Assembly: GCA_016196625.1 (NCBI GenBank)
Contig: JACPXH010000024.1
Coordinates: 1,206-65,205 of the forward strand
From: Candidatus Parcubacteria bacterium
GTDB lineage: Bacteria; Patescibacteriota; Minisyncoccia; JACPXH01
DNA: 64,000 nt
Reading direction: 5' to 3'
In this document: positions 7,952 through 55,170 of the stretch, piece after piece
Layout: every line of letters starts with the position of its first letter
Numbering within the stretch: position 1 is the first letter of the stretch
Translations under genes and position numbers: made by a program
Notes under the pieces: generated by a model
Seen by the model: only the letters and a program-made list of their open reading frames with translations
Databases searched by the model: none
What the model was told of the DNA's origin: nothing

Positions 7952-8062
7952 AAGTCCAAATGACAAATCCAAGGCTCAAGGCTCAAGGCTCAACGTTCAA
8001 AACGATTTGGCCTTTGGATTTTGAACTTGATTTGAAATTTGAGCTTTGAGTTTTGAGCTTCG
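7952..8062. repeat. Heptamer-array palindromic repeat, copy A. Left half is tandem NNCAAAN units (GTCCAAA TGACAAA TCCAAGG CTCAAGG ...TTCAAAA); right half is the inverted complement (TTTTGAA CTTGATT TGAAATT TGAGCTT).
   Basis: Read directly; related copies at 37953-38075, 40535-40607 and 55098-55170. Confidence 0.6.
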
Positions 8063-8071
8063 TCCTATCCT

Positions 8072-8731
8072 ATGCCCGCATCCAACCTCCCCGCCACCCA
8101 ATCCTTCCTCGCCTTTGAGTCCATCCACGACGACGTGGTGGCGATGAAAGACGGGTCGCTTAGAGCCATCCTCATGGCTTCCTCCATGAACTTCGAGCTC
8201 AAGTCCACCGAAGAACAAGACGCCATCGTCTATGCTTACCAAGACTTCCTTAACTCGCTCGATTTCCCCATCCAGTTCGTCGTCCACTCTCGTCGGCTCG
8301 ACATCGAGGAGTACTTGGAGGGCATCCGGGCCCTCGAGAAAGACCAGCCCAACGAACTCTTGCGCCTGCAGACAAGCGAATACGTCAACTTCGTCAAAGG
8401 TTTTGTGGAGCTCGCGAACATCATGTCAAAGACCTTCTACGTCGTGCTGCCGTTCGTGCCGGTCGAGCGCACCAAGGCCTCGTGGAGCGACCGGATGCTG
8501 GCGGCGTTTAGACCGCGGGCGGCTCTCAAAGCGGCTGGCCGCTTTGAAGAATACCGCAATCAGCTCTGGCAGCGGGTGGAACACGTTGCGTCCGGGCTAA
8601 GTCGCTTTGGGGTACGCGCAGTCGCGCTCACCACCGAAGAACTCGAGGAGTTGTTCTACGCGCTCTACCGGCCCGGCGAAGCAGCAAAAGCCGGGCTGGA
8701 GGCACTAAAGCAGCTTGAGTTCAAAACATAA
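8072..8731 (+). CDS. VirB4 N-terminal (CagE/TrbE/VirB-like) domain fragment, 219 aa. It is probably the N-terminal part of a split or frameshifted VirB4.
   Basis: Motif ...VVAMKDGSLRAILMASSMNFELKSTEEQDAIVYAYQDFLNSL... resembles VirB4/TrbE N-termini. The downstream ORF is open in another frame from 8709, so a single frameshift within 8709-8731 would fuse the two. Confidence 0.45.
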   Translation: MPASNLPATQSFLAFESIHDDVVAMKDGSLRAILMASSMNFELKSTEEQDAIVYAYQDFLNSLDFPIQFVVHSRRLDIEEYLEGIRALEKDQPNELLRLQTSEYVNFVKGFVELANIMSKTFYVVLPFVPVERTKASWSDRMLAAFRPRAALKAAGRFEEYRNQLWQRVEHVASGLSRFGVRAVALTTEELEELFYALYRPGEAAKAGLEALKQLEFKT

Positions 8732-8738
8732 ATCAGCC

Positions 8739-10517
8739 ATGGCTTTGCGCTTCTTCCAATCAAGCCAAAACACAAAACCGCCGGCGAGTCCGACCGGACT
8801 AGCCGACCTGATCGCGCCCAGCGCCGTTGAAATCTCCGCTGATCACGTCAAGATCGGCGATCGGCTCGCGCGCACCATCTTTGCTTTTACCTACCCTCGC
8901 TACCTCGGCACCAACTGGTTCAGCCCCGTCATCAATCTTGACCGGATCTTCGACATCTCGGTCTCAATCAGTCCGGTGGACACGGGCACCATCCTAAAGC
9001 GGTTGCGCAAAAAAGTAGCCGAGGTGGAATCAACCATCTCCATGCGCCAGGAAAAGGGCTTGGTGCGAGATCCGTTGCTTGAAACCGCCTACCAGGACCT
9101 GGAGGATCTGCGCGACAAACTCCAGCAGGCCCGCGAACGGCTGTTCGCCGTGGGGCTGTACATTACTATCTACGGTCCGGACGAAAAAACGCTCGACGAC
9201 GCCGAGGCGCAGATCCGGGGACTATTGGAAACTCGGCTCGTCTACGCGCGCCCAGCCACTTTCCAGCAAGAGTTGGGGTTCAGCACCACGCTGCCGCTCA
9301 ACAACGATACGCTGCGGGTTGCCACCAACCTCAACTCTTCACCCCTCTCTACTATCTTCCCGTTCGTGTCCTCGGAGCTGACCTCGGATCGCGGCATCAT
9401 GTACGGCATCAACCGGCACAACAACTCCCTCATCCTCTTTGATCGTTTTTCCTTGGAGAATGCGAATTCGGTAGTCTTTGCCAAATCCGGCGGCGGCAAA
9501 AGCTACCTCGCCAAGCTCGAAATCCTGCGCTCCATGATGCTGGGGACCGATGTTATCGTGCTGGACCCTGAAAACGAATACCACTACCTGGCCGAAGCCG
9601 TAGGCGGAAGTTTCGTTAAAATTTCTCTGGCTTCCCGAAACCACATCAACCCCTTTGACCTGCCCCTGCCGGCAGAGGGGGAATCGCCCGAAGAGGTGTT
9701 CCGGGCGCACGTGGTCGAACTCGTGGGGCTCATCCGCATCATGCTGGGCGGGCTCACCCCGGAGGAAGACGCCATCATGGACCGCGCTATAGCGCAAACC
9801 TATGCGTCGCGCGACATCACGCCCGGCTCGAATTCTTCGAAGGCCGCCCCGCCCACGCTGAGCGACCTGCAGACGATTCTTGAAAACACCGCCGGCGCCC
9901 AGCAACTCGCAACGCGACTTTCTAAATACACCTCGGGCAGCTACGCGGGCTTCCTAAACCAGCCCACCAACATTGCCATCACCAGTCAGCTCGTCGTCTT
10001 CAACGTCCGCGACATGGAGGAGGAACTCCGCCCGATTGCGATGTACGTCGTGCTCCACCACATTTGGAACGTCATCCGACGCGAACTCAAAAAGCGCATC
10101 CTCATCGTGGATGAAGCGTGGTGGCTCATGAAAACCGCAGACGGCGCCTCGTTCCTGTTCTCAATTGCCAAGCGCGCGCGCAAGTACTACTTGGGGCTCA
10201 CCACCATCACGCAAGACGTCGCCGACTTTATGAAATCAACTTACGGCGAACCCATCGTTACCAACTCCTCTTTGCAAATCCTTTTGAAGCAGTCGCCAGC
10301 GACCATTGAAACCGTGGCTAGAACTTTCAGCCTGACGGACGAAGAAAAATTCCTGCTCTTAGAAGCCAACGTGGGGGAGGGCATCTTCTTTGCGGGCTTG
10401 AAACGCGCGGCGATCAAGATAGTCGCTTCCTACTCTGAAGATCAAATCATCACCTCTGATCCGGAACAATTGATTGCGATCGAGCAGGCCAAAAAAGAAC
10501 TCTCCGCTACTGCTTAA
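8739..10517 (+). CDS. VirB4/TraC-family T4SS ATPase (C-terminal part or a complete Gram-positive-type VirB4).
   Basis: Walker A VVFAKSGGGKSYLAK; Walker B ILIVDEAWWLM; N-terminal IAPSAVEISADHVKIGDRLARTIFAFTYPRYL typical of the VirB4 family. The track ORF starts at TTG 8715; the ATG at 8739 is preferred. Confidence 0.65.
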   Translation: MALRFFQSSQNTKPPASPTGLADLIAPSAVEISADHVKIGDRLARTIFAFTYPRYLGTNWFSPVINLDRIFDISVSISPVDTGTILKRLRKKVAEVESTISMRQEKGLVRDPLLETAYQDLEDLRDKLQQARERLFAVGLYITIYGPDEKTLDDAEAQIRGLLETRLVYARPATFQQELGFSTTLPLNNDTLRVATNLNSSPLSTIFPFVSSELTSDRGIMYGINRHNNSLILFDRFSLENANSVVFAKSGGGKSYLAKLEILRSMMLGTDVIVLDPENEYHYLAEAVGGSFVKISLASRNHINPFDLPLPAEGESPEEVFRAHVVELVGLIRIMLGGLTPEEDAIMDRAIAQTYASRDITPGSNSSKAAPPTLSDLQTILENTAGAQQLATRLSKYTSGSYAGFLNQPTNIAITSQLVVFNVRDMEEELRPIAMYVVLHHIWNVIRRELKKRILIVDEAWWLMKTADGASFLFSIAKRARKYYLGLTTITQDVADFMKSTYGEPIVTNSSLQILLKQSPATIETVARTFSLTDEEKFLLLEANVGEGIFFAGLKRAAIKIVASYSEDQIITSDPEQLIAIEQAKKELSATA

Positions 10518-10520
10518 CTC

Positions 10521-10982
10521 ATGCCCGCCGTTGCCGCGCCAGTTCAAAATGAAGCCCCGGCCGCACCCGAACGCTCCCGGGCCGAGGCCTTCTTGGCCCG
10601 CAAGCGCGCCGCGCTGCCTGCGGCCTCCGCTCCACGCAAGCCAGAGCCTTCGATCGGCTTGGGCGAATTCATGTTGATGCTTTTTTTCGCTGCTTTTTTC
10701 GATCTGGTCTCCCTGGTGCCGTGGCTGAACCTAGTCACGGTCTTTCTGGGCAACGTAACTTTTGGCGCCTGGTTTTGGTTTAAGGGGCTCTCGTTTAAAA
10801 AACTGCGTCTCGCCTTCGCGCTCGAAAGCATCATTGAACTCGTCCCATTTTTGAGCATATTGCCGGGCTTCCTCGGCCTCGTTATTACGGCTTACGTTGT
10901 CCAGCGCGCCGGCCGCTTAATCGGCCAGCTGCCCGGAGGGCAGCTGGCTGCTCGGGCCCTTGAAGGACGGAGGACAATTTAA
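10521..10982 (+). CDS. Small membrane protein (3 predicted TM helices) within the T4SS-like operon.
   Basis: ORF track; hydrophobic helices. Confidence 0.35.
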   Translation: MPAVAAPVQNEAPAAPERSRAEAFLARKRAALPAASAPRKPEPSIGLGEFMLMLFFAAFFDLVSLVPWLNLVTVFLGNVTFGAWFWFKGLSFKKLRLAFALESIIELVPFLSILPGFLGLVITAYVVQRAGRLIGQLPGGQLAARALEGRRTI

Positions 10983-11833
10983 TGCCCCGACCCTTCGCCG
11001 TCGCCATCGTTTCGCTTGCGCTCGCGTTTGTGGTGTCGCTGGCGCTGGGCGGGCCGCGACTCCTCGCCCAAGACCTGCGCGAGAACGAGCCCCTCTCCCA
11101 GCTGCCTGTGCCAGAGCCCGGCGGTGGCGTAGTCACGCCCGGCATTGGCATCGCGAACTTCGTGCGCTACGTGTATCTCTTCGGCATCAGCTTCGTGGCC
11201 GTGGCCGCAGCGGTGTCCATAATGTACGGCGGGGCAAGGTATATGTTTTCGGCAATCCCCGGCGTCAAAGAGGATGCCAAAGACCGCATAACCAACGCCG
11301 GAATCGGGCTTGCCTTGGCGCTGGGCGCTTTCATTATCTTACGCACCATAAACCCGGATCTTGTATCCTTCAAACCCATCGAGGGAGACTTTCTGCATCT
11401 TGAAGAACCGGCCCAGCCCGGCAGCGGCCGGATCGTGATCCAGCCGGGGGATGCGTGCAGCCTCGCGGGTCCAAACCTGTGCGCTGCCGGTTCAACCTGC
11501 AGACCAGACTTCCTACCGGGCTCCGCCACCGTCCGACCAGACTCCACCACCGGCGCCACCTGTCAAACAGACAGCACGCCGCAGGTTCTCGGCAACGGCC
11601 AAGACTGCTCGCGCAACCCCAATGCCTGCGGGCCAAACCTGCAATGCACGAACGTCTCGGGTCATCTGGTGTGCACTCCGATACCGCCAGCGGCCGGCGT
11701 GCCTGAAAACGACGTCTGCGAAACCGATGTCTTCCGAGGTCAAGGCAACTGCGGCATTGGCTCCAACGGCCGGCCGCTCACGTGCGTAACCCAAAACGCC
11801 GCTACGCGCCGCGGCACCTGCCGGGCCTTCTAG
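10982..11833 (+). CDS. VirB2/TrbC-like pilin-fold protein (signal peptide plus two-helix hairpin GISFVAVAAAVSIMYGGARYMFS...GIGLALALGAFIILRTI) with a 170-aa Cys-rich, Thr/Pro-rich C-terminal extension (about 16 Cys).
   Basis: Hydrophobic hairpin resembling conjugative pilins; the ATG shares an A with the previous TAA; the stop shares a CTAG with the convergent gene. Confidence 0.4.
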   Translation: MPRPFAVAIVSLALAFVVSLALGGPRLLAQDLRENEPLSQLPVPEPGGGVVTPGIGIANFVRYVYLFGISFVAVAAAVSIMYGGARYMFSAIPGVKEDAKDRITNAGIGLALALGAFIILRTINPDLVSFKPIEGDFLHLEEPAQPGSGRIVIQPGDACSLAGPNLCAAGSTCRPDFLPGSATVRPDSTTGATCQTDSTPQVLGNGQDCSRNPNACGPNLQCTNVSGHLVCTPIPPAAGVPENDVCETDVFRGQGNCGIGSNGRPLTCVTQNAATRRGTCRAF

Positions 11834-15853: not shown

Positions 15854-15854
15854 G

Positions 15855-18589: not shown

Positions 18590-19960
18590 ATGACCCTCGA
18601 ACAACTCTGGCAGGCTGCACTCGGCGAAATCGAACTAACCCTCTCGAAGGCCCATTTTCATACGTGGCTCAAAAATACCACTATTGTCGCCCAAGAGAAC
18701 GGGGTGGTCTTAGTGAGTTGCCCAAACGGATTTACGAAGGAGTGGCTGGAGAACAAGTACAACAAACTAATCCTGCACGCGTTGCGCAACGTTTCAGAAG
18801 ATACCCGCGAAGTTCGCTACGTTATTGGCAAGGAGGCGGTACTCACCCCAAGCCCGGCCGCAAGGCGCCGGCGTGAACTGCTGGTGTCTCCACCCATGGA
18901 AGAACAGCTTGATTTTAAAGAACTGGCTGTTGATCCGAATACCAACCTAAACCCTAAATACACTTTTGAATCTTTTGTGGTGGGCTCGTTTAACGAGCTT
19001 GCTCACGCGGCTGCCCAGGCTGTTCTTAAAAACCCCGGCACAACTTACAATCCACTCTTTGTCTACGGTGGGGTTGGATTGGGGAAAACACATCTTTTGC
19101 AGGCCACCGGCAACGCGGTCGTTTCGCAGCACAAAAGTCTCGCCATCAAATATGTAACCGCTGACCGTCTGGCCAATGAAATCGTTTCATCGATCCTTGG
19201 TGGTTCCATCGACCAACTAAAGAACGACTATCGAAGAATCGATCTTCTAATTGTTGACGACGCGCAGTTCCTGTCGGGGAAAGAAAAGGTACAAGAAGAA
19301 GTGTTCCACACCTTCAATGTACTCTACCAGAAAAACAAGCAAATTATTTTCTCTTCGGATCGACCGCCAAAGGCCATCCCCACGCTGACTGAACGGCTCC
19401 GGTCTCGCTTTGAGGGCGGAATGGTGGCTGACATAAGCTATCCTGATTTTGAGACTCGTCTGGCGATCGTCAAAGCGAAGGCCCGAGAAAAAGAGCTCGC
19501 CCTTGACGCTGAGGCTGCCGCATATATCGCGACCCATTTCCAGAAAAACATTCGAGAACTGGAGGGGGCGCTAAACCGGGTGGCGTCGCAGGTTCGGGTG
19601 AGCCGCCAAAGTCCAACGGCTGCCTACGTCCAAAAATATCTGGCATCGATCATCAATGAACCCCGAAAAAACACCTCGCCCAAACAAGTAATTAAGGCGG
19701 TGGCCGAATTCTACGATCTTTCCGAGCGGGATCTTATCGAGCGTGGCCGCAAAAAAGAAATAGTACATCCGCGGCAGATCGCGATGTTTCTCCTGCGAGA
19801 AGAATTAAAAAACTCTTACCCGTTTATTGGTATGAAACTCGGCGGTCGCGACCACACTACAGTCATGCATGCGTACGACAAAATCAGCAAGGAGTTTGAG
19901 GAGAATGAAAACCTGCGCCGGGAAATACATCTCATTAAAGAACGCATCTATAACGTGTAG
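18590..19960 (+). CDS. dnaA: Chromosomal replication initiator DnaA.
   Basis: GVGLGKTHLL Walker A, box VII and a C-terminal HTH; 456 aa. Confidence 0.95.
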   Translation: MTLEQLWQAALGEIELTLSKAHFHTWLKNTTIVAQENGVVLVSCPNGFTKEWLENKYNKLILHALRNVSEDTREVRYVIGKEAVLTPSPAARRRRELLVSPPMEEQLDFKELAVDPNTNLNPKYTFESFVVGSFNELAHAAAQAVLKNPGTTYNPLFVYGGVGLGKTHLLQATGNAVVSQHKSLAIKYVTADRLANEIVSSILGGSIDQLKNDYRRIDLLIVDDAQFLSGKEKVQEEVFHTFNVLYQKNKQIIFSSDRPPKAIPTLTERLRSRFEGGMVADISYPDFETRLAIVKAKAREKELALDAEAAAYIATHFQKNIRELEGALNRVASQVRVSRQSPTAAYVQKYLASIINEPRKNTSPKQVIKAVAEFYDLSERDLIERGRKKEIVHPRQIAMFLLREELKNSYPFIGMKLGGRDHTTVMHAYDKISKEFEENENLRREIHLIKERIYNV

Positions 19961-20150
19961 ATGGGGTGGGGGATAACGCCTGTAAAAACTCCTGACAAAA
20001 CAGTATTTTTTGGGGTCGCCATATTTCTCCACCGAGCACACAGCGGGTTACCAGAACTTACCCACCACCATATCCACTGCTATATATAAGTAAGCGCGCC
20101 GCGTAATTTTCAGATGTTTAGTAATAATATTTAGTTAGTACTATACGGAT
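19961..20150. promoter_or_regulatory. AT-rich dnaA-dnaN intergenic region (TATATATAAGTAAG...TTTAGTAATAATATTTAGTTAGTACTATA) with degenerate DnaA-box-like words. Candidate DNA unwinding element / oriC.
   Basis: Marked AT-richness against a GC-rich background; typical oriC location. Confidence 0.35.
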
Positions 20151-21266
20151 ATGAGATTTACTTGCTTGCAGGAAAACCTACAAAACGCGTTGAGTGTTGT
20201 AGAGCGCATTGCGGGACGCAATGCCGCACTACCGATTTTGAGCGCCGTGCTCATAAGTACGCACCAGAATCGTCTACAGTTTGTGGCTACCGACCTGGAG
20301 CTTGGTGCAACAACCTGGTGCGCTGGAAAATTAGAAGGCGAAGGGCGACTCGCCCTGCCCATGCGTCTTATTACCCAGTTTGTCTCTAATTTCATTCCCC
20401 AAACGAAACTGCAGCTTGACTTTAATCCACCCCACCTAACCGTTACCACCGAAAATTCTAAGGCCACGTTCCGGGGCCTGGACACCAAGGACTTTCCCAT
20501 TATTCCGGCATTCACACCACTCCACGCCGTAACCGTCCCAGTCAAAACACTTCTGCACGGTCTGGGGCAAGTTCTGCCCGCAGTAGCCACCCACGAAGCA
20601 CGACCGGAAATCAACGGCGTGCTGTTCGCTATATCCAAAAACGAACTCAAGCTTGCGGCGACTGACACATTTCGGCTGGCTGAAAAAATAATTACCACCC
20701 AGGCGCCTGACGACAACGTAAGCCGGGCGGCCCGCGTCATCGTCCCACACCGAACTCTCCACGAAGTCGTGCGCATTTTTAGCGCCGGCACCGAAGACAT
20801 CCACATTGACGTCGGCGAACATCAACTGTGCTTTCATACTCCGACAGCCCAGCTTATTTCACGGCTCATCGCGGGCGAGTACCCAAACTACGCCGCGATT
20901 ATACCAACCAAGTTTCAAAACAATACCGTGGTGGCCTCAAAAGCTTTTGCGGGTTTGGTCCGGGGCGCAGCGATCTTCGCCACCAAGCTAAATGATATTC
21001 ATGTCGGGATTGAAACATCGAAACGCGCGGTGCGTGTTTCGGCCGTCGACCCAGATAAAGGCGACCACACCGCCACTGCGCCGGCCGAAATATCCGGTGA
21101 GCCGCTGGAGGCCAGCTTCAATTACCGGTACTTACTAGACGGCATTGAGGCCATCCCCACCGACAACCTTGAGTTCGCAGCCACTTCCGCTTCCACCCCA
21201 GCGGTGATCAAGCCGCGCGGCGACCCAAGTTTTATTTATGTCATCATGCCGATTCGGCGCAGTTAA
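20151..21266 (+). CDS. dnaN: DNA polymerase III beta sliding clamp.
   Basis: 371 aa; N-terminus MRFTCLQENLQNAL...; follows dnaA. Confidence 0.9.
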   Translation: MRFTCLQENLQNALSVVERIAGRNAALPILSAVLISTHQNRLQFVATDLELGATTWCAGKLEGEGRLALPMRLITQFVSNFIPQTKLQLDFNPPHLTVTTENSKATFRGLDTKDFPIIPAFTPLHAVTVPVKTLLHGLGQVLPAVATHEARPEINGVLFAISKNELKLAATDTFRLAEKIITTQAPDDNVSRAARVIVPHRTLHEVVRIFSAGTEDIHIDVGEHQLCFHTPTAQLISRLIAGEYPNYAAIIPTKFQNNTVVASKAFAGLVRGAAIFATKLNDIHVGIETSKRAVRVSAVDPDKGDHTATAPAEISGEPLEASFNYRYLLDGIEAIPTDNLEFAATSASTPAVIKPRGDPSFIYVIMPIRRS

Positions 21267-37952: not shown

Positions 37953-38075
37953 ATTTCAAATGCCAAAGCTCAAATGACAAATAAAATCCAAAGCCCAAAG
38001 TTCAAAACGGTCTTGTCATTGGGATTTTGAGCTTTGAGCTTGACTTGAAATTTGGATTTTGGCATTTTGATTTCG
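37953..38075. repeat. Heptamer-array palindromic repeat, copy B (TTCAAAT GCCAAAG CTCAAAT GACAAAT ... TCCAAAG CCCAAAG TTCAAAA, then the inverted complement).
   Basis: Read directly; coordinates within about 2 nt. Confidence 0.6.
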
Positions 38076-38112: not shown

Positions 38113-38236
38113 GGGGTCAACCCCGTTAGAAGTTCAACCACGAATCTGTTTTCGAGGGAACCAAGAGGCGAAGCCGACTACGTCTTATAAACATGCCTCA
38201 TAAGTCGGTCTAACTGAAACTTCTAACGGGGTCAAG
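38113..38236. mobile_element. MITE-like element, variant copy 1, with terminal inverted repeats CCCCGTTAGAAGTT...AACTTCTAACGGGG.
   Basis: 14-bp perfect TIR related to the ACCCCGTTAGAAAAC family at 40431, 52320 and 55171. The internal sequence is different. Confidence 0.5.
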
Positions 38237-38247: not shown

Positions 38248-38277
38248 TTGACAATGTATAGATTTGTTTGCTATAAT
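38248..38277 (+). promoter_or_regulatory. Consensus promoter TTGACA, 18-bp spacer, TATAAT, upstream of gene 38420.
   Basis: Exact hexamers. Confidence 0.4.
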
Positions 38278-38419
38278 GTAAGAGGAAAATGAAGGCCTAG
38301 GAAATTGGCTCTACGGCTCAATGGTGGGCCAGACGAGCCGAAATCCGAGGCCAGTCCTTTGAGAGTTCGGTGCGGTTGGCTTTGCGGCGACCAGACGGTC
38401 TGCCGCGAAAGGAGGAGCC

Positions 38420-39076
38420 ATGAAGAAGATGAAGATGATGTTGGCGTGGGTGGTGTTGGCGGTCGCGATCGTCGCGGCCGCGCCCATCGGGGCGTGGGCC
38501 GCGGGGTACGAGACCCGGTCCGGGTCCACCTCGACCAGCACGACGGACACTGTGTCCGGCGTGCCGGTGCCCGGGGGCGGGACCCGGAACACGTCCACTT
38601 CGAACTCGTCCAGCGATTCGTTCTCCCGTTCCCGCCCGGTGTACGATGGCTGGGAGCGGGCGAACATGACGGCCTCGACGGCCGTCAACGTCGTGGGGGC
38701 CATGCAGAGTATCACAGGCCTCTTCGGCGGAATGGCGGCCGGGCCGGTCGTGGCCACCCCGACGGGCGTTTACGCGCCCAACGGGAACGGCGGCTACGGC
38801 GGCTATTACGGCGGCGGGTACTACGGCGGTGGGCAGCAAGTTCCGCCGCTCGTGTACCAGCGGACCGTCAGCACCGCGGGCCCGCCGGCTCCGATCTGTT
38901 ATACTTACGCCGGGGTCTGTGACGTATGGACCCCGCAGGGGTGGCAGAGGGTTCCGATGCCGGCAACGCAGCCGGCCCCGATGCCGACCGTTACGGCCCA
39001 AGTCGGTCCGCGCTGCGGCTACGAGCAGCGGACCGACGGCCACGGGTTCTACTGGCAGGAGTACGTTTGCCGGTAG
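38420..39076 (+). CDS. Secreted Ser/Thr/Gly/Tyr-rich protein with a YGGYYGGGYYGGG segment and 4 C-terminal Cys.
   Basis: Signal peptide MKKMKMMLAWVVLAVAIVAAAPIGAWA; strong SD AAAGGAGGAG. Confidence 0.5.
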   Translation: MKKMKMMLAWVVLAVAIVAAAPIGAWAAGYETRSGSTSTSTTDTVSGVPVPGGGTRNTSTSNSSSDSFSRSRPVYDGWERANMTASTAVNVVGAMQSITGLFGGMAAGPVVATPTGVYAPNGNGGYGGYYGGGYYGGGQQVPPLVYQRTVSTAGPPAPICYTYAGVCDVWTPQGWQRVPMPATQPAPMPTVTAQVGPRCGYEQRTDGHGFYWQEYVCR

Positions 39077-39912: not shown

Positions 39913-40425
39913 TTGTGGAGGATGCAGGCGTATGAAATTGAGCTTCGCGGCGAGCGTGCCACGCGCAAAGCCGGCCAGATCTTGGGCGAGCTCCTGCGCC
40001 AGCAGCCGACAGGCAAGCGGGACTTCGTGCTCGCGCTCGAAGGCGAGCTCGGCGCGGGCAAAACCACTTTTATCCGTGGTCTTGCCAAGGGCCTCGGCAT
40101 CCGCTCCAAAATCACCAGCCCTTCGTTTCTTGTCGCGAAGCGATACACCATTCCCTCGGCCCGTACGCGCCGGAGATCCTTCGGGCTTCGCCCTCAGGAT
40201 GACGGGAAGGGGAGAGTGTTTTGGCATTTTGATTTCTACCGTCTAGAACGCCCCACGCAGCGCGACCTTGAGCTCCTCAATTTCCATCAAATCCTGAGCG
40301 ATCTCCACACCATCGTCGCGATTGAGTGGGCGGAGCGGGCTATGCATTCTTTGCCCGAGAAACGACTTACCCTTCGCTTCACCACTTTGAATTCAAGGGC
40401 GCGAAAACTCATTGTTTCAGAATGA
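39913..40425 (+). CDS. tsaE: tRNA t6A37 threonylcarbamoyladenosine biosynthesis protein TsaE (YjeE-type P-loop ATPase).
   Basis: Walker A LEGELGAGKTTFIRGLAKGLG and the conserved SPSF motif. Confidence 0.65.
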   Translation: MWRMQAYEIELRGERATRKAGQILGELLRQQPTGKRDFVLALEGELGAGKTTFIRGLAKGLGIRSKITSPSFLVAKRYTIPSARTRRRSFGLRPQDDGKGRVFWHFDFYRLERPTQRDLELLNFHQILSDLHTIVAIEWAERAMHSLPEKRLTLRFTTLNSRARKLIVSE

Positions 40426-40430
40426 CAAAT

Positions 40431-40534
40431 GTCAACCCCGTTAGAAAACAAGATTTTGTTTCATCGAAAGCAAGAACTCTTTAGTAGACTGACGGGCCGG
40501 AGAAAGTACGACCAACGAGTTTTCTAACGGGGTC
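40431..40534. mobile_element. MITE-like TIR element, copy 2 (TIR ACCCCGTTAGAAAAC ... GTTTTCTAACGGGGT).
   Basis: Near-identical to copies at 52320-52422 and, in reverse orientation, at 55171-55273. Confidence 0.6.
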
Positions 40535-40607
40535 AAAGCTCAAATGGCAAATCAAAAGTTCAAATGTCAAAAAAGCGTTTTGGATTTTGTCGTTTGGATT
40601 TTTGGTG
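40535..40607. repeat. Heptamer-array repeat, copy C, abutting TIR copy 2 and ending 3 nt before the polA start codon.
   Basis: GTCAAAG CTCAAAT GGCAAAT ... TTCAAAT GTCAAAA, then the inverted half. Confidence 0.55.
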
Positions 40608-40610: not shown

Positions 40611-43232
40611 ATGTCTATGCGCAAAGTGCCGACCAAGAAAAAAACCGTTGTCCTCATTGATGGCCACGCGCTCATCCACCGCGCCTACCACGCGCTCCCG
40701 CCGCTTACGGCAGCGGGCGGAGAAGTTGTGAACGCGGTGTACGGGTTCGTATCGTTGTTGTTCAAAATGTATGAGGACTTGAGGCCCGATTACGTGCTGG
40801 CCGCCTTTGATCTGCCCGGCCCCACGTTTAGGCACGAGGCCTTTGAAGCTTATAAAGCCCAGCGCGCCGAGACGCCTTCGGACTTGGACAGCCAGTTTCC
40901 CAAGGTTAAAGAGGTCCTTCACGCATTCAACGTGCCGGTGCTCGAAGCCGAAGGGTTTGAGGCCGATGACGTGATCGGAACGCTCGTCGAAAAACTTGAG
41001 GAGCGCGATGATGTTCGGCTTGTAATTCTCACGGGCGACCTCGACACGCTCCAGCTGGTCTCGAGTAAAACCTCGGTCTATACGTTGAAGCGCGGTATGT
41101 CCGAGACCGTTGAATACACACCCCAGGCAGTGCGGGAGCGCTACGAAGGTTTGAAGCCAAGCCAAGTCGCGGATTTGAAGGGACTCAAGGGTGATCCATC
41201 GGATAATATTCCGGGCGTGCCCGGGGTGGGGGAGAAAACCGCTATTCAGCTGTTGCAGAATTTTGGGACGATTGAAAAACTGTACGCGGTTCTCGAAAAC
41301 ACAAAGCCCAAAACACAAAGCCCAAACAAAGCCCAGAGTACAAAACTGTCGCCGAAACTGGTTGAAAAATTGTTAGCGAATAAAGATCAAGCGTTTTTTT
41401 CCAAAGAGCTCGCCACGATCCGGCGCGACGCGCCGATTCGATTCCGGTTGGAAGACGCGTCGGTCAAAGGCATTGATCGCGCTAAGATATCGGCGCTGTT
41501 TAAGCGCTTTGGGTTCTACACGCTCTTGAAGCGTCTGCCCGGCGAACTCAAGGCCGAGGCGCCGCAAATTGAAACGCGCGAGGCCGCAGCCACCACCATC
41601 GCGAAAACCGCAGGCACCTTAGCGCTGGCACTCACCGACTCTGGCACGCTCGACGTCGCGAGTTCCAAGCATGCAGCGACTACGGTGGGTTTTGGGGACA
41701 TTCCGCCCGAACTGCGCGCCACTCTTTCATCAGCGAACGTGGTGAAAATCTTCCACGACGCCAAGTCAATCTTGAAGCTGCTCCGCCGCGCCGGCGTCAA
41801 TGTACGGGGCGAGCCGCCAGCCGGCGGATTCGACACCATGGTTGCGGCCTACCTGCTTGCCCCGGGCAGCCGCGATTACTCCCTCGAGCGCCTTGCCTTC
41901 CGCGAATTTCGCCGCACGCCCGGCACGCTGACACATCCGGCCTGCCTCGCCTTCGAGCTGGCCGAACCGCTGAAAACTAAGCTCGAGAAAGCTGGCGCGT
42001 GGCCGCTTTTTCAAAAGATCGAAATGCCGCTCGTCCCCATCCTGGCCGAGATGGAAGAAGCGGGGATCACGGTTGATGCCACTGCGCTCCGGGAACTTTC
42101 GAAAACGCTCTCGGCCGAGCTCAAAAAACGCGCGGCTAAAATCTACAAGCTGGCGGGCGAAGAGTTTAACGTCAATTCCACCCAAGTCTTGCGCAAAATC
42201 CTCTTTGAAAAACTTCAGCTTTCAGTCAAAGGCTTGAAGAAAACCCCGACTGGCGAACTCTCCACGGCCGCGGGCGGCCTTGAGAAGCTCCGCGAGGTCC
42301 ACCCCATCGTGCCCCTTATTTTGGAGTACCGCGAAATTTTTAAAATCAAATCCACTTATGCGGATGCGCTCCCCGAGCTCTTGAGTCCCGAGACCGGGCG
42401 TGTGCACACGACCTTCAACCAGACCGTAGCCGCAACTGGCAGACTGTCTAGTTCAGATCCCAACCTCCAGAACATTCCCACCTTCGGCGAATACGGTCAG
42501 GCAATCCGGAATGCGTTCATGGCGGCCAGGGGCTATACGCTCCTTGCGTGCGACTACTCGCAGCTGCAGCTTAGAATTGCGGCCTCGCTCGCTAAAGACG
42601 AAAAGATGTTAGCTGCCTTCAGGGCAGGCCGCGATATTCATGCGCTTACCGCGGCTGAAATTTTCGAAGTACCCATTGGGAAAGTAACCCCAGAGCAGCG
42701 TCGGGAAGCGAAAGCGCTCAATTTCGGGGTTCTCTACGGCATGGGTGTGACCGGCTTTGCCGAGTCAGCCGGCATTGAACGGCAGCGCGCCAAAGAGTTC
42801 ATCGAGCGCTACAAACGTGAGTTTTTCGGCATCTCGGTATATATGGAAGCAGTGAAAATGCAGGCGCGTAACCTTGGCTACGTCGAAACCTTGCTTGGCC
42901 GCAGGCGGTATCTGCCCGAAATTCTGTCCCCCAATAATATGCTTGAGGCCGCGGCTGAACGCATGGCCATCAATCATCCGATTCAGGGGCTGGAGGCGGA
43001 TATCGTAAAACTGGCGATGATCGAGATTGGCAAACTGCTCCGCGGGCGCGAAGAAGATTGTCGTATGCTGCTGCAAGTGCACGACGAACTGGTGTTTGAA
43101 ATTAGGCCGGAATTTGTGGCGGAGCTGGCGCCAAAGATTCTTGCGGCCATGGAGGGCGTGTTTACCCTTGAAGCACCGCTGGTGGCCGAAGCAAAAGCCG
43201 GAAAGCGGTGGGGGAACATGGAGGAATTTTGA
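40611..43232 (+). CDS. polA: DNA polymerase I (5'-3' exonuclease, 3'-5' exonuclease-like and polymerase domains).
   Basis: Pol A motifs DYSQLQLR and QVHDELVFE; N-terminal 5' nuclease. Start set at the ATG at 40611; the track ORF has a TTG at 40587 inside the repeat. Confidence 0.9.
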   Translation: MSMRKVPTKKKTVVLIDGHALIHRAYHALPPLTAAGGEVVNAVYGFVSLLFKMYEDLRPDYVLAAFDLPGPTFRHEAFEAYKAQRAETPSDLDSQFPKVKEVLHAFNVPVLEAEGFEADDVIGTLVEKLEERDDVRLVILTGDLDTLQLVSSKTSVYTLKRGMSETVEYTPQAVRERYEGLKPSQVADLKGLKGDPSDNIPGVPGVGEKTAIQLLQNFGTIEKLYAVLENTKPKTQSPNKAQSTKLSPKLVEKLLANKDQAFFSKELATIRRDAPIRFRLEDASVKGIDRAKISALFKRFGFYTLLKRLPGELKAEAPQIETREAAATTIAKTAGTLALALTDSGTLDVASSKHAATTVGFGDIPPELRATLSSANVVKIFHDAKSILKLLRRAGVNVRGEPPAGGFDTMVAAYLLAPGSRDYSLERLAFREFRRTPGTLTHPACLAFELAEPLKTKLEKAGAWPLFQKIEMPLVPILAEMEEAGITVDATALRELSKTLSAELKKRAAKIYKLAGEEFNVNSTQVLRKILFEKLQLSVKGLKKTPTGELSTAAGGLEKLREVHPIVPLILEYREIFKIKSTYADALPELLSPETGRVHTTFNQTVAATGRLSSSDPNLQNIPTFGEYGQAIRNAFMAARGYTLLACDYSQLQLRIAASLAKDEKMLAAFRAGRDIHALTAAEIFEVPIGKVTPEQRREAKALNFGVLYGMGVTGFAESAGIERQRAKEFIERYKREFFGISVYMEAVKMQARNLGYVETLLGRRRYLPEILSPNNMLEAAAERMAINHPIQGLEADIVKLAMIEIGKLLRGREEDCRMLLQVHDELVFEIRPEFVAELAPKILAAMEGVFTLEAPLVAEAKAGKRWGNMEEF

Positions 43233-43262
43233 ACTTTGCATTTTTAACTTTTCATTTCTTTT

Positions 43263-45158: not shown

Positions 45159-45162
45159 ACCA

Positions 45163-46190: not shown

Positions 46191-46220
46191 GACGTCCGCG
46201 CACCTTTGGTGCGCGGACGT
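46191..46220. terminator. Bidirectional terminator between convergent holA and rpsT (GACGTCCGCGCACC-TTT-GGTGCGCGGACGT).
   Basis: 14-bp stem; T/A runs on both sides. Confidence 0.55.
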
Positions 46221-46285
46221 TGAGTTGTTGGATCGATTCGTTGATTCAGTTGGTCGGCCAATCAAGCGGCGACTCACTTCGAACT

Positions 46286-46552: not shown

Positions 46553-46642
46553 AATCGGCGTGAATAGAATATCAGGGGTTTAGAGACTTTGCAATGTTTG
46601 CGGCCCGCCCATGTGGGCGGGCCGCTTCAGGAATCGTTTCGG

Positions 46643-47631: not shown

Positions 47632-47921
47632 GGCTTCCCTCCGTGGCTATGGGGTTATGGGAAAGGACTTTCCGCTTCGTTTGGCGTACCCCGGTGCGAC
47701 AACTTCGATTGTGCCCAGCGGGCACCCCGATTTCCCTTACTTAGGCTAAGCTAAAGCATTTTTACGGCAATACCAGTGTTTTTAATCCCAGCAATCGGCG
47801 TCTCCATCGAGAGAGTTGTAGCACCGGGTACGGTAACAGGATTTCGGATAGCGCGCAAGCCCACTGTTTCGTCAAGGCTTCGCAGTGCAAGTACATCGAA
47901 ATACAGCAGCCATGCAGCCGG

Positions 47922-51605: not shown

Positions 51606-51689
51606 AACCTACTTTGTGATACAGATTCTACCCGCTGATTGCCGCTGTCACAAACCGCTTCCAGACTTAATTTGGGAGCAAAGAGGAGG

Positions 51690-51944
51690 ATGTGTACCTT
51701 GAAAATCCGGATGGGGCGATACAGGGATAAGCCGGACGTTGACTGGTCTCGATACGCCAAGAAGTCTGGCACTGGCGAGGACTCCGATGGGCTCTCTCCG
51801 AGCAGAGCAGCCAACAGTACCGAGGGTCGATGGCATTACCATGCATGGGTAGAAGAAGGAACTGCCGAGGAGGAGGAATGCTACCATCTAATTCCGGCTA
51901 ATTCCGGGGGGCGAATACACGCAAGGAACGGTGTGTCATCCTGA
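51690..51944 (+). CDS. Candidate small protein (about 81-84 aa; ...RWHYHAWVEEGTAEEEECYHLIPANSGG...). AGAGGAGG abuts the ATG, so an in-frame TTG at 51699 may be the real start.
   Basis: ORF track (51639 TTG start); low-GC region, by eye. Confidence 0.25.
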   Translation: MCTLKIRMGRYRDKPDVDWSRYAKKSGTGEDSDGLSPSRAANSTEGRWHYHAWVEEGTAEEEECYHLIPANSGGRIHARNGVSS

Positions 51945-52245
51945 CGTGCACGACGTCGAGATCGCCTCGGAGGCAGTCGAAGTTCCTGAGGCCATCGTGA
52001 AAATGGTCGAAGCCCTGGAGTCATTCTATGACGAGTTGGTCCCGGAGCACGAGAACGATCCCCGCGACGTTTTCGTTGACGGTCTGAAGCGGGCATTGCT
52101 CCAGGCCTACGCCATGGGCGCTCAAGACAGTGCGCCGATGTACTTCAAGCCTCGTTTCGAACACGTGGAGCAAGACGAAGGTTATGGGTTTTTTTCGAGA
52201 GAGCACAGACTCGCTCCGCTCTTCGCCAAAAAGACGGCGCGCTAG
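51931..52245 (+). CDS. Candidate small acidic protein (104 aa from a GTG; alternative ATG at 52003).
   Basis: ORF track; followed by a clear terminator. Confidence 0.3.
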   Translation: MCHPDVHDVEIASEAVEVPEAIVKMVEALESFYDELVPEHENDPRDVFVDGLKRALLQAYAMGAQDSAPMYFKPRFEHVEQDEGYGFFSREHRLAPLFAKKTAR

Positions 52246-52282
52246 TCCCGAATGGTACGGCGGGGCCCACCACCGCTCGCAA

Positions 52283-52320
52283 CCGCCGGAGTCGCAACTC
52301 CGGCGGTTTCTCTTTTCTTG
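52283..52320 (+). terminator. Rho-independent terminator (CCGCCGGAG-TCGCAA-CTCCGGCGG followed by TTTCTCTTTTCTTG).
   Basis: 9-bp stem plus a long T-run. Confidence 0.6.
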
Positions 52321-52422
52321 ACCCCGTTAGAAAACAAGACTTTGTTTTATCGGGAATGGGAACTCTCTTCAGTAGACTGACGGATCGAAGAAAGCACGGC
52401 CAACGAGTTTTCTAACGGGGTT
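52320..52422. mobile_element. MITE-like TIR element, copy 3.
   Basis: GACCCCGTTAGAAAACAAGACTTTGTTTTATCG...CAACGAGTTTTCTAACGGGGTTG; about 85-90% identical to copy 2. Confidence 0.6.
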
Positions 52423-52455
52423 GAAAAAAGAGCCAGTTCGCGCCATGATGAGGCG

Positions 52456-53037
52456 ATGATCGGTTTTGTTGAAGGCACGGTGGCCGGCCGCGAGGATTCG
52501 GCTCTACTGCTTCAAGTGGGCGGCATTGGTCTGCGGCTCCTTGTGGGGCCGGAGAGCTTGGCGAAGATACCACAAAATGGTACCAGAATAAAGGTTTGGA
52601 CGCACCTTGCGGTGAGCCAGTTTTCGTGGACGCTCTACGGGTTTTTGACCGTTGAATCATACGAACTTTTTCAACTGTTTCTTGAAGTGCCCGGATTCGG
52701 ACCGCGCCGGGTGCTTGGCATGGTGGATGGCGCGGATCCGGCCAAAGCGCGCGCAGCCATTGAAGCAGAAGACAACGAAGAATTGGCACGGATTTGCGGC
52801 ATCTCGGTTACTACGGCAGAAAAGCTTGTGGTGGGACTTCGTCGGGTTCGGAAACCCGCTGGCAAAAAATCTCCAAAAACTGCGAACGCCGCGGTTAATT
52901 CTGATCAGCGTATGGTTGAGGAAGCGCTCGTTTCTTTGGGCTACGGCAAAACCGAAGCGCGCGAAGCTGCGGCAGCTTCGTCTGGCGTGAGCGTGGAAGC
53001 GTGGGTGCGGGCGGCGCTAAGGCGAGCAAAGAAATAA
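52456..53037 (+). CDS. ruvA: Holliday junction DNA helicase subunit RuvA.
   Basis: N-terminus MIGFVEGTVAG..., HhH motifs, C-terminal domain III. Confidence 0.85.
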   Translation: MIGFVEGTVAGREDSALLLQVGGIGLRLLVGPESLAKIPQNGTRIKVWTHLAVSQFSWTLYGFLTVESYELFQLFLEVPGFGPRRVLGMVDGADPAKARAAIEAEDNEELARICGISVTTAEKLVVGLRRVRKPAGKKSPKTANAAVNSDQRMVEEALVSLGYGKTEAREAAAASSGVSVEAWVRAALRRAKK

Positions 53038-53145
53038 AACTCTTGAAGCAGCATGTCGAAGTTGCGGAAAACAAGCCGGCCGCCGCACTCCCTCAGCGAT
53101 CATTCGCTCGTCCAGCGACTCGCTCACTCTGTCCTCGCTAGCCGA

Positions 53146-53285
53146 GCCGCCGCAGTCGCGTCGCGCGGCGTCGCGCAGGCCGAGCGGGCAGGGTCTCCGC
53201 CAGCAGGCGGAGGAGCGAGGCCGAGCGAGAGTGCGGCCTGCTCGCTGGGCGGGCCGACACGTCCGTGCGACGCGACTGCGGCGGC
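53146..53285. repeat. GC-rich nested-hairpin element downstream of ruvA. A 19-bp perfect inverted repeat (GCCGCCGCAGTCGCGTCGC at 53146-53164 and its complement at 53267-53285) encloses inner hairpins CTCCGCC-AGCA-GGCGGAG (53195-53212) and AGGCCG...CGGCCT (53218-53239). Contains the AGGCCGAGCGGGCA core.
   Basis: Read directly. Related to the element at 62585-62722. Confidence 0.5.
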
Positions 53286-53377
53286 TACCATGCCGGCTAG
53301 CTGCGGATGTCGCTTCGGGAGTGTGGCGGCCGGCCATACTTCCTGACGAGGATTACGCGTGAAGCGGAAGTCTAAGT

Positions 53378-53998
53378 ATGGCTACCTTACTCCTTATTAT
53401 CTCGCGGCTCGGCCTTGCCTCCCTTATTGGCTTTGAGGGTTTGAACTGGATCGGCGTGCTTGATTTCACGCTCGATTTCAGCTGGCTTGGGCTCATCGTG
53501 ACGGCGGTGGCCGTGGTTGCGTTTTTGGAGGGCGCTGCGTTTTTACTCAAGCGCACAACCGGCCGCGGCCTGCATCCGGTGGCCTACTTTGCCGGAGCGG
53601 CAGGGCTGGCGTTTGACGCCATCGGCGACATAGCCCACCTTTACGGTCGTTTCGCCTGGTACGATCAAGTCGCGCATTTCCTCGGCGGGGCGGTGGTGGG
53701 GATTGTGGCGTTTAACGTGCTTTGGCAGCTTGAGCAGGCTGGGCGAATGCGGCTCGGTGCGGGGTGGCGGAGTCTATTCGTCGTTTCGATCGGAGCGTTC
53801 TTCGGCAGTTTGTATGAGATAGAGGAGTACCTTGAAGACCTTTGGAAGTGGCACCGGCAGGTGCGCTTGGGCGATGGGCCGGATACGGCAAACGACCTCT
53901 TGTTTAATATCGTCGGGGCCATCGCGGTGGTGGCGGCCGTCGTTCTCTGGCAGCGGCTACGGGCGCGGAGTTCGGCACGAGAATATGTCCCTGATTGA
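53378..53998 (+). CDS. Hypothetical polytopic membrane protein (206 aa).
   Basis: ORF track; about 5 TM helices. Confidence 0.45.
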   Translation: MATLLLIISRLGLASLIGFEGLNWIGVLDFTLDFSWLGLIVTAVAVVAFLEGAAFLLKRTTGRGLHPVAYFAGAAGLAFDAIGDIAHLYGRFAWYDQVAHFLGGAVVGIVAFNVLWQLEQAGRMRLGAGWRSLFVVSIGAFFGSLYEIEEYLEDLWKWHRQVRLGDGPDTANDLLFNIVGAIAVVAAVVLWQRLRARSSAREYVPD

Positions 53999-55097
53999 TC
54001 CCACAGCGTGGAACGGAGCGATCCTCGGGCACCCGGATGGTTCTTTCTTGCAGTCGTACGAGTGGGGTGAGTTTCAGCAAGCGTACGGCCGTCCGGTCTT
54101 TCGTTTTGCCTTGGCCTCTGGCGCGCGCGTACAGGCCGTGTGCATGCCGCTCCCGTTCGGGTTTTCGTATGCGGGCGTGAGCCGTGGGCCGGTGGGGGAG
54201 GTGAGACCGGTTGAGTTGAGGCTCGGCCTTGCCCAACTGACTGCCTTGCCGTCCTTGGTCTTTGTGCGCTTCGAGCCGTCTTGGTCCTCAGAGCGGAGAC
54301 ACGAATTTGCCGCCGCCGGTTTCTTGAGAACAGTGCCGACGCAGCCGGAGATGACGTGGGTAGTTGATCTGGGTGTATCCGAGCACGATGTGCTTAGCGG
54401 CATGCATCCAAAAACTCGTTACAACATTCGCTTGGCACAGCGGCACGGCGTAGAGATTATTGAGACGGGTGCGGCCGGATTTAAAGTGTTTCGTGATCTG
54501 CTCCGGCAAACAGGAGAGCGCGAAGGTTTTCGCACGCACGATCCGCGCTACTACGAACTTATGGCCGAACACCTTCTTGTCGAAGCTCCCAGGCCGCCCT
54601 TTGTCAAGCCGCAGGCGCGAATCTTTTGCGCGCAGTATCGCGGCGACGTGCTGGCCGTTGCGTTTATCCTCTTTTTTGGGCAGGAAGCAGTGTACCTGCA
54701 TGGCGGCTCGGCTGCGCAGTACCGCGACGTGATGGCGCCACATCTGCTGCATTGGGAAATCATTCGGCGCGCCAAAGCGCTTGGGTGCACCAGGTATAAT
54801 CTGTGGGGCATCGCCCCGCGAAGCGGGGCGATGGCTAGTCCGCATGACCAAGCCCGAAGGGCTTCAAGCGGGGCGATGGCTAGCGCTTGGCGCCAAGCCC
54901 GAAGGGCTTCCAGCGACGCAATGTATCCATGGCAAAGCGAGCAGATGAAGCAGTGGGCCGGCTTTACCCGTTTCAAACAGAGTTTCGGCGGCCGACCGGT
55001 CGAGTACATGGGGGCGTGGGACTTGCCGGTGCGGTCTACGTGGTACCGTCTCTACCAGTTGGCGAGACGTATTCGAAGGCAGGCTGTCTTCTTTTAG
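53985..55097 (+). CDS. FemAB-family peptidoglycan peptide-bridge aminoacyltransferase (lipid II amino-acid transferase-like). It contains an in-frame 45-bp tandem duplication.
   Basis: N-terminus MSLIDPTAWNGAILGHPDGSFLQSYEWGEFQ typical of FemABX; start set at the internal ATG 53985. Confidence 0.55.
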   Translation: MSLIDPTAWNGAILGHPDGSFLQSYEWGEFQQAYGRPVFRFALASGARVQAVCMPLPFGFSYAGVSRGPVGEVRPVELRLGLAQLTALPSLVFVRFEPSWSSERRHEFAAAGFLRTVPTQPEMTWVVDLGVSEHDVLSGMHPKTRYNIRLAQRHGVEIIETGAAGFKVFRDLLRQTGEREGFRTHDPRYYELMAEHLLVEAPRPPFVKPQARIFCAQYRGDVLAVAFILFFGQEAVYLHGGSAAQYRDVMAPHLLHWEIIRRAKALGCTRYNLWGIAPRSGAMASPHDQARRASSGAMASAWRQARRASSDAMYPWQSEQMKQWAGFTRFKQSFGGRPVEYMGAWDLPVRSTWYRLYQLARRIRRQAVFF

Positions 55098-55170
55098 GCA
55101 GCAATCCAGATGGCAAAATCCAAAGCGTTTTGATATTGGAGTTTTAGATTTGTTTTGGCATTTGAGCTTC
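55098..55170. repeat. Heptamer-array repeat, copy D (the inverted counterpart of copy C), abutting TIR copy 4.
   Basis: ATCCAGA TGGCAAA ATCCAAA GCG, then TTTTGAT ATTGGAG TTTTAGA TTTGTTT TGGCATT TGAGCTT. Confidence 0.55.

Follow-up and report, generated by a model that had tools for sequence, protein, structure and literature searches.

Palindromic heptanucleotide-repeat arrays at gene junctions of a Parcubacteria genome

The stretch of DNA analysed here (64 kb, referred to as the window) belongs to a Candidate Phyla Radiation (CPR) genome with a G+C content of ~59% and contains four palindromic arrays of 7-nt units, denoted A to D. In each of them, an arm of NNCAAAN units is followed by a short centre and a mirrored arm of NTTTGNN units, the centre of arrays A, C and D reading …CAAAA-(G)CG-TTTTG…. 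With an A+T content of 57–68% the arrays form AT-rich islands. Array A (7952–8062; CAAA-type arm 7952–8002, centre 8003–8005, TTTG-type arm 8006–8062) is located directly 3′ of the TGA of a PrgI-family gene (7949–7951) and ends 9 nt short of an ATG at 8072; according to Pfam, its neighbours are the PrgI-family gene and a VirB4/TraG-like ATPase. Array B (37953–38075; CAAA-type arm 37953–38007, spacer, TTTG-type arm 38025–38075) occupies a divergent intergenic region flanked by two proteins without a Pfam match, with the ATG (37943) of the minus-strand gene 10 nt from its left end. Array C is interrupted by a MITE (miniature inverted-repeat transposable element), which severs a left-hand fragment (40421–40435, aatgacaaatgTCAA) from the main part (40533–40607; CAAA-type arm 40533–40574, centre GCG, TTTG-type arm 40578–40606). 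The tsaE stop TGA (40423–40425) falls inside its first unit, the polA ATG (40611) follows 4 nt past its end, and the Pfam-assigned neighbours are TsaE, PolA and Fpg. Array D is degenerate (55098–55172; arm 55098–55124, centre GCG, TTTG-type arm 55128–55172) and lies directly 3′ of the TAG of a FemAB-family gene (55095–55097). A right-hand remnant of this array (55274–55286, catttgaaattct), again split off by a MITE, abuts the ATG (55287) of a Mur-ligase gene, so that array D without the MITE reaches that start codon. None of these features, nor the MITEs described below, is assigned to a strand. On the plus strand, a half array consisting of the TTTG-type arm only (43226–43262; lag-7 self-match 0.63, p = 0.006) fills the gap between the polA stop (43230–43232) and the fpg GTG (43263).

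The AT-rich arrays of 7-base units at the four sites are genuine and form hairpins, and they are positioned between the stop of one gene and the start of the next. They take up nearly the whole stop-to-start gap, and the TTTG arm ends 0–13 nt from the downstream ATG or GTG. The genes behind the TTTG arm lack a Shine-Dalgarno (SD) sequence, and a subset of the other genes in the window carries AAGGAGG-type sites. All four arrays reported in a first-pass annotation were recovered, each with its CAAA-type arm, centre and TTTG-type arm. The 7–8 units quoted there apply to A and B, but not to C (~6 + 4) or D (~3 + 5), and the conserved word said to end several copies, GAGCTTCG, terminates arrays A and D only, being absent from the ends of the others. 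A 45-bp tandem repeat (54821–54915; 2.1 copies, 86% match) is found just upstream of array D, within the FemAB-family gene.

The period was evaluated by comparing the lag-7 self-match of each arm with 1000 dinucleotide shuffles. Lag 7 is the best lag in array A (left arm 0.67, p = 0.001; right arm 0.63, p = 0.001), in array B (left 0.61, p = 0.001; right 0.56, p = 0.003) and in the left arm of array C (0.54, p = 0.008). The test is weak for the right arm of C (p = 0.07) and not significant for the arms of D (p = 0.15–0.16). With five arms at p ≤ 0.008, the arrays contain the run of at least 3–4 tandem 7-nt units that characterises heptanucleotide simple sequence repeats (SSRs), and TRF returned rows of period 7 or 14 at A, B and 43226. 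When the whole window was scanned at lag 7, only the half array at 43226–43262 and a run inside polA (see below) were comparable to the four arrays. The units are mixed (TCCAAAG, CTCAAAT, GACAAAT…) rather than near-perfect copies of one unit, in keeping with a lag-7 identity of 0.54–0.67; perfect iteration is restricted to CAAGGCT ×3.4 (7970–7993, in one arm of A only) and TTTGAGC ×2–3. Folded as single strands, A, B and C are far more stable than their shuffles (z = −4.2, −3.4 and −4.0) whereas D is not (z = +0.2). The fold of array A amounts to −41.7 kcal/mol, array B gives z = −3.4 and −3.9 on its two strands and is detected as an inverted repeat, and array C reaches −21.6 kcal/mol on the plus strand as compared to −5.5 kcal/mol on the minus strand. 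The 7-bp periodicity and the hairpin formation first proposed from visual inspection are significant in both tests for A, B and C. As inverted, stem-loop-capable pairs in intergenic, stop-proximal positions, the window arrays correspond to the heptamer repeats of the Xanthomonas and STRR type.

Moreover, the arrays are related to one another. The reverse-complemented right arm of D can be aligned without gaps to the left arm of B over 55 nt, with a score of 55 versus 28.5 in unit-permuted controls (p = 0.003), and three further arm pairs exceed such controls at p ≤ 0.03. Array D is assigned to the family because of this alignment. As the arms of different arrays share the order of their units, they are copies rather than products of independent slippage. 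Vocabulary and unit order are held in common by the arrays within one genome, and five arrays in 64 kb with arm-to-arm homology constitute a dispersed multi-copy family of the kind known from REP, BIME and REPIN elements. We therefore favour, tentatively and with slightly less than even confidence, an interpretation of the arrays as a dispersed REP-like family of palindromic heptanucleotide repeats that has settled at the junctions between genes in this Parcubacteria (CPR) lineage.

In Parcubacteria the gene order around polA is conserved, and related genomes were reached via homologues. At the tsaE–polA junction, relative L001 (PolA 82% identical) carries a TTCGAAT-type palindrome and relative L002 (PolA 78% identical) a TTCAAAA/TGTAAAG-type palindrome. 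The palindrome at the junction is AATTTTC…GAAAATT in L266, where the T-rich arm comes first, and of the AATTTTA type in L267. L268 shows an ATGA overlap of the two genes and no array in 22 kb. The unit sequence is thus fully replaced between lineages while the period and the mirror symmetry are kept. About six arrays were counted in the 22.6 kb of L001, several comprising only a TTTG-type arm that abuts a start codon. One straddles the polA stop, where the CAAA arm codes for the PolA C-terminus, and the gap orthologous to the half array between polA and fpg holds a full palindrome. Two copies with near-identical arms are found 5 kb apart in L266. Together with the pattern scans described further below, the palindromic heptamer arrays at this junction show that such arrays also exist outside the window; that they might be restricted to it was a possibility raised in the first-pass annotation.

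Heptamer runs occur in coding sequence as well. The in-frame CAAA-type run noted earlier within polA (40611–43232) is present at 41296–41348 on the plus strand, as a ~10-codon insertion in a linker. It is shared by the window, L001 (10681–10737) and L002 (867–884) and is absent from L266, L267 and L268. A further in-frame run was observed in a topA-like gene of L267 (21843–21921). In all these runs, which reside in DNA-metabolism genes, the CAAA strand is the sense strand. The repeats can therefore become part of reading frames, where they form Lys/Gln/Asn-rich linkers or C-terminal extensions.

Three of the four arrays are accompanied by members of a CCCCGTTAGAA…TTCTAACGGGG MITE family, which has terminal inverted repeats (TIRs) of 11–15 nt and 4-bp target-site duplications (TSDs; TCAA/TTGA/TCGA). 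The element beside array B is located outside the array at a distance of 45 nt (38121–38231; TIR CCCCGTTAGAA/TTCTAACGGGG; TSD TCAA at 38117–38120 and 38232–38235). Those of C (40436–40532; TSD TCAA at 40432–40435 and 40533–40536) and D (55173–55269; flanks TCGA at 55169–55172 and TTGA at 55270–55273) directly abut array sequence. The latter two are near-identical in opposite orientation (reverse complement), and the copy at B has only the TIRs in common with them. A fourth copy (52322–52420; flanks TTGA/TTGA) lies within the T-run of the canonical terminator at 52281–52308, with no array nearby.

The adjacency of B, C and D to TIR elements, which the first-pass annotation described correctly, had led to the proposal of a single mobile element of roughly 180 bp composed of array and TIR element. 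Beyond this association at three of four arrays, the data contradict the proposal, and we regard it as hardly credible. The TIR elements are flanked by 4-bp target duplications of their own. In L001, the site orthologous to the one beside B lacks the element (GGGCTCT..GGTCAAGTA); the empty site reads GGGCTCT-ATGGTCAAGTAC, as compared to GGGCTCTGGGGTCAA, element, TCAAGTAT in the window. There is no MITE at array A and no array at the MITE of 52322–52420, and the tsaE–polA arrays of L001 and L002 are likewise free of any MITE. Array-type sequence flanks the MITEs on both sides in C (aatgacaaatgTCAA to the left, TCAAagctcaaatgg to the right) and D (gagcttcga to the left, TTGAcatttgaaattct to the right), and for this reason the MITEs are understood to have inserted into these arrays. 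No TSD flanks the arrays themselves, which thus do not show the combination of defined termini, TSD and presence/absence polymorphism expected of a MITE. A composite element was rejected on the basis of the empty site in L001 and the uncoupled occurrences. The MITEs are independent, separate insertions with their own 4-bp target duplications, and the apparent 180-bp unit is attributed to the insertion of MITEs within or close to arrays in which their target, TCAA/TTGA, is abundant. The MITEs would have arrived later, attracted by these target-rich arrays.

To describe the wider distribution, the pattern CAAAN3CAAAN3CAAA-N(10–40)-TTTGN3TTTGN3TTTG was used, for which we estimate a chance expectation of ~1 or less in 596 Gb. 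At least 120 matches were obtained in species-representative genomes. Among the matches listed are Acidobacteriota, Bacteroidota, Planctomycetota, Chloroflexota, Cyanobacteria (Brasilonema, Stigonema, Cyanocohniella), Omnitrophota, Nitrospirota and several proteobacterial classes, as well as many Patescibacteria (Roizman-, Microgenomates, Saccharibacteria, Peribacteria, Magasanikiibacteriota). The mirror pattern with the TTTG arm first gave at least 120 matches in metagenomes. It follows that there is no universal arm order. A general rule of the CAAA arm coming first, compatible with a bidirectional terminator whose 3′ arm is U-rich, was therefore rejected. In viral contigs, 13 CAAA-first stretches compare with five in the mirror orientation; in the period controls, period 6 was absent and period 8 gave five stretches, so that period 7 is preferred, not exclusive. 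Within the loci drawn from the matches listed, the two orientations rarely meet: loci selected for CAAA-first arrays (AT; ~1.05 Mb) hold 148 AT arrays and no TTTG-first (TA) array, and one of 120 loci selected for TA also has an AT array. These loci further contain many period-7 arrays with unrelated units, several of them palindromic.

A subfamily that has words in common with the window arrays is found mainly in CPR phyla, but also on contigs assigned to Omnitrophota or delta-/gammaproteobacteria and on viral contigs. Its members share with the window the start AAATCCAAATGACAAA, an irregular kink "CAAATCAA/TTGATTTG" and the end TTTGTCATTTGGATTT. The 13-mer TCCAAATGACAAA, allowing at most one mismatch, was counted 70 times across 38 loci of several phyla, where 2.2 occurrences are expected. 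Arrays of the same word family (…CAAAGCTCAAAGTCCAAATTTGTCATTTGA…) were also observed on viral contigs of IMG/VR (L005–L013), where they typically precede a strong AAGGAGG as well as an ATG 20 nt downstream; the family is therefore also present on phage-like DNA. As a separate observation, six metagenome loci with a GC content of 18–27% (L168, L192, L215, L238, L264 and L265) matched the control pattern with TTTGGGG/CCCCAAA inverted arrays. These are read as ciliate-type telomeric repeats of eukaryotic contigs, unrelated to the bacterial arrays.

The position of the arrays between stop and start invites a different explanation, namely a selected RNA element: an intercistronic or 3′-end hairpin like those of REP/BIME that would protect the upstream mRNA from 3′ exonucleases, attenuate read-through, or mask and unmask a start codon devoid of an SD sequence. 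In the last mode, the TTTG arm would carry the start region, and translation of the downstream gene would depend on that of the upstream gene. We consider such a role a serious, if rather unlikely, alternative. It is consistent with arrays that reach from stop to start, with the TTTG arm 0–13 nt from the ATG or GTG, and with array-preceded genes that lack the SD sequence present in a subset of the others. Array A is located behind a pilin-like (PrgI) gene, a classic site of differential-expression hairpins, and the heptamer repeats of Xanthomonas are transcribed and lie close to stop codons (PMC4692102). In addition, a selected mRNA hairpin should favour the sense strand by virtue of its G·U pairs, and the sense strand indeed folds better in six of six co-directional arrays (1–16 kcal/mol), i.e. 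by 5–16 kcal/mol in A, C and D and by smaller margins in three arrays of L001.

The larger samples do not follow this trend. Gene orientation was assigned there by a crude longest-ORF (open reading frame) rule, which renders the strand-bias test noisy, and no significant preference for the sense strand was found in the AT set (55 : 36, n = 91), the TA set (33 : 32, n = 66) or both combined (88 : 68, n = 157, p = 0.13–0.18). The CPR-type subfamily shows no bias either (11 : 12, n = 23). In view of these samples, the three-of-three preference in the window is anecdotal. The flanking genes of the 148 arrays are co-directional in 91 cases, convergent in 23 and divergent in 21, which is close to the frequencies for any intergenic element; the convergent and divergent contexts, being about as common as in the background, speak against the RNA element. 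In 67 co-directional cases, the arrays start at a median of 16 nt after the stop and end 22 nt before the start, and a tight gap fill was seen in 23 of the 67. The lack of strand bias and the background-like orientation classes fit an element that acts at the DNA level.

A role in termination was not supported either. Intrinsic-terminator consensus scans of the window did not flag the arrays, and no U-tract follows the stems, the tails being tcgtcctatcct, tgattatg and accgcccc. Canonical GC-rich terminators were called elsewhere in the window (39115, 52281 and 57465). The arrays are thus not terminators in the canonical sense, as had been suggested, and the absence of a U-tract also counts against the RNA element. 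No Rfam family matched anywhere in the window at gathering score, and at E ≤ 1 only sub-threshold matches to eukaryotic miRNA hairpins were returned; tRNAs are likewise absent from the window.

The DNA level could alternatively involve a protein, with the units serving as double-stranded iterons, along the lines of the first-pass annotation, or the palindrome as a cruciform for a DNA-binding protein of nucleoid or insulator function. In favour of this assignment, no consistent sense bias exists among the 157 arrays, although the two strands of single arrays often differ by several kcal/mol, words are common across phyla, and every unit of the TTTG arm begins with TTG, as in the −35 hexamer. 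A 7-bp spacing, however, places successive sites 240 degrees apart on B-DNA, and units that differ wholly between related genomes at the same junction likewise speak against this assignment. The arms contain no consensus promoter; a sigma-70 scan of the arrays returned only a weak 9/12 match inside the CAAA arm of B, and the perfect promoter (TTGACA-18-TATAAT with TG) at 38248–38277 is outside the array. No candidate protein was identified, and no link to the oriC/dnaA region of the window exists: the dnaA/dnaN/GC-skew-switch region (18.5–22 kb) holds no array. Nor do the arrays resemble replication or partition iterons, i.e. direct repeats of ~17–22 bp near rep/par genes or an origin, as they are 7-nt, inverted and located at housekeeping junctions. 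Overall, this explanation appears very improbable to us.

By analogy, the arms could instead offer tandem sites to an OB-fold protein that binds single strands and has a footprint of 7 nt, such as a cold-shock protein (Csp) or ribosomal protein S1. In this case, NNYTTTG sites would make up the TTTG-type arm, and binding would compete with the hairpin and thereby set translation or read-through. Bacillus subtilis CspB prefers the heptamer GTCTTTG/T (PMC1904285), many arm units read (N)NCTTTG or GTCTTTG, and period 7 is the best period, period 6 being absent from the control scan. The SD-less start regions are compatible with such binding, and Csp and S1 have also been suggested as binders of the TAACTGA repeats, which end just upstream of start codons (PMC4679880). 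Still, the argument is one of resemblance purely. The three variable positions of the unit are unconstrained, the same genomes or their relatives also contain palindromes of quite different units (GAGTGCT, GAAACTG, AATTTTC), the mirror orientation (TTTG first) is common as well, and arrays of period 8 exist. An OB-fold protein as the primary reason for the arrays thus seems quite improbable.

Elements of these proposals can be combined. In SD-poor bacteria, the arrays may act as functional junction elements in which the hairpin joins the stop codon to the SD-less start for re-initiation by the ribosome, a bacterial shunt, while the units of the U-rich arm are Csp or S1 sites that open the hairpin. 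We judge this improbable. If true, it would represent a widespread layer of post-transcriptional control in CPR bacteria, Omnitrophota, Bacteroidota, cyanobacteria and their phages, and it would explain a 35-year-old puzzle of heptanucleotide repeats.

Returning to the preferred interpretation as a dispersed repeat family, the following mechanism may be envisaged. Units would be gained and lost by replication slippage, as exemplified by CAAGGCT ×3.4 in one arm of A, while the mirrored arms would be maintained by copying at the DNA level, be it hairpin or template-switch repair or duplication of the whole element. New junctions would be seeded by copying, and with arms and whole elements being copied, the family would evolve in concert within each genome and be replaced between lineages. 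Insertions would be kept where they are tolerated, that is, at gene junctions and in the polymerase linker. Because the insert is a palindrome, a polycistronic transcript would fold it into a long, looped-out hairpin that keeps stop and start codons close. Inserts would thereby be tolerated at tight junctions, including those where the genes overlap in array-free relatives. Any effect on expression, for example of an intercistronic hairpin on mRNA decay or coupling, would be secondary.

Several points weigh against the repeat family. No mobilising enzyme, terminal signature or target duplication of the arrays was found; a Y1 transposase domain is absent from the ten proteins flanking the arrays, although no search aimed at a RAYT-like gene was made. 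Selection could account for the retention of an array at one junction in lineages whose PolA proteins are ~50% identical. Likewise, the recurrence of the 13-mer TCCAAATGACAAA and the kink "CAAATCAA/TTGATTTG" hints at a sequence-specific constraint such as a binding factor rather than neutral DNA, and the conservation of words across phyla is the observation least well explained by neutral spread. The sense-strand preference of the six arrays from the window and L001 would fit a role as RNA, unlike the larger samples, and is suggestive at most; it should be noted that the crude orientation rule limits those samples.

REP, BIME and REPIN elements are dispersed, genome-specific imperfect palindromes in intergenic regions, often within operons, that are transcribed as hairpins. 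REPIN doublets measure ~100 bp, and REP families evolve in concert within a genome. The window arrays are similar in being dispersed intergenic palindromes with multiple copies of related sequence per genome. They differ in their AT-rich arms of 40–55 nt composed of 7-nt units, as compared to the GC-rich stems of 20–40 nt in REP elements, and in lacking the GTAG/CGTC head. Cyanobacterial STRR elements, said to have been described by Mazel in 1990, reportedly consist of 7-nt tandem units in intergenic regions with lineage-specific sequences, slippage having been proposed as their origin. STRR are described as direct tandem arrays, however, and the palindromic, junction-spanning organisation is seen in the window arrays only.

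The closest precedents of the window arrays are the inverted GGGAATC pairs of Xanthomonas and the TAACTGA repeats of Beggiatoaceae. The former (Rehm et al. 2015, PMC4692102) are mostly intergenic, with 70–75 inverted, stem-loop-capable pairs per genome, and are transcribed from positions very near or overlapping stop codons; their function is unknown, and the array type is kept while the length varies between related species. Both systems feature 7-nt inverted pairs near stops. GGGAATC, however, is a G-rich, near-perfect single unit capable of forming G-quadruplexes, whereas the arrays of our CPR host are AT-rich, run from stop to start and are made of mixed units in conserved order with an irregular kink. 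The TAACTGA heptamers of Beggiatoaceae, cyanobacteria and Bacteroidetes (MacGregor 2015, PMC4679880) are intergenic direct repeats that end a few nt upstream of starts lacking canonical ribosome-binding sites, and S1, Csp and CsrA were suggested as binders. They are built from a single unit and are inverted in one of 170 sets (PMC4679880), in contrast to the mirrored arms of mixed units described here. Heptamers are the most abundant class of long SSRs in many bacteria, as far as the work of Mrazek (2007) is summarised in PMC4679880. Short-period arrays have also been reported in CPR bacteria and phages as the TIGR arrays of TIGR-Tas systems, with a unit of ~36 nt comprising two 8–12-nt repeats and two 9-nt spacers, box C/D motifs and an adjacent Nop-domain Tas gene (PMC12045711). 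An assignment to TIGR or CRISPR arrays was rejected, given the period of 7 and neighbours such as PrgI, VirB4-like, TsaE, PolA, Fpg, FemAB and Mur ligase. Full-text literature searches yielded no description of AT-rich, mixed-unit, stop-to-start arrays in CPR bacteria.

The arrays belong to a widespread and poorly understood class of bacterial heptamer repeats, which have been known since the work on cyanobacterial STRR. The tsaE–polA junction provides a clean comparative case, featuring either an ATGA overlap or a palindromic heptamer array whose sequence turns over while period and symmetry are kept. It raises the testable questions of how arrays are generated, how their symmetry is upheld, and whether a stop-to-start hairpin preserves coupled expression. 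For the annotation of CPR genomes, it is relevant that such AT-rich islands are neither consensus promoters nor terminators, that they extend or interrupt the ends of ORFs, and that they act as landing pads for the TCAA/TTGA-targeting MITE.

Three additional features of the window were observed. At 18590–21266, ORFs of the size of dnaA and dnaN, putatively identified by synteny with L266 and L267, lie near the cumulative GC-skew minimum (21–22 kb) beside an AT-rich stretch (20053–20188); judging from these sequence features, the region is probably the chromosomal replication origin. At 38248–38420 (7838–7962 in L001), the perfect promoter beyond array B is followed by a leader of ~140 nt that is near-identical in both genomes despite a PolA identity of only 82%. 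This segment has no Rfam match and lies upstream of a glycine-rich ORF (G+C at third codon positions 0.89); it may represent a 5′ leader under conservation or a small RNA. Finally, GC-rich nested inverted repeats at 53075–53334 and 62559–62774, and at 7655–7780 in L001, have the core GAGGCCGAGCGGGCA … GAGCGAGGCC in common and look like a second, unrelated family of MITE-like or structured repeats. A similar insert replaces the second arm of the array beside the L001 orthologue of B.

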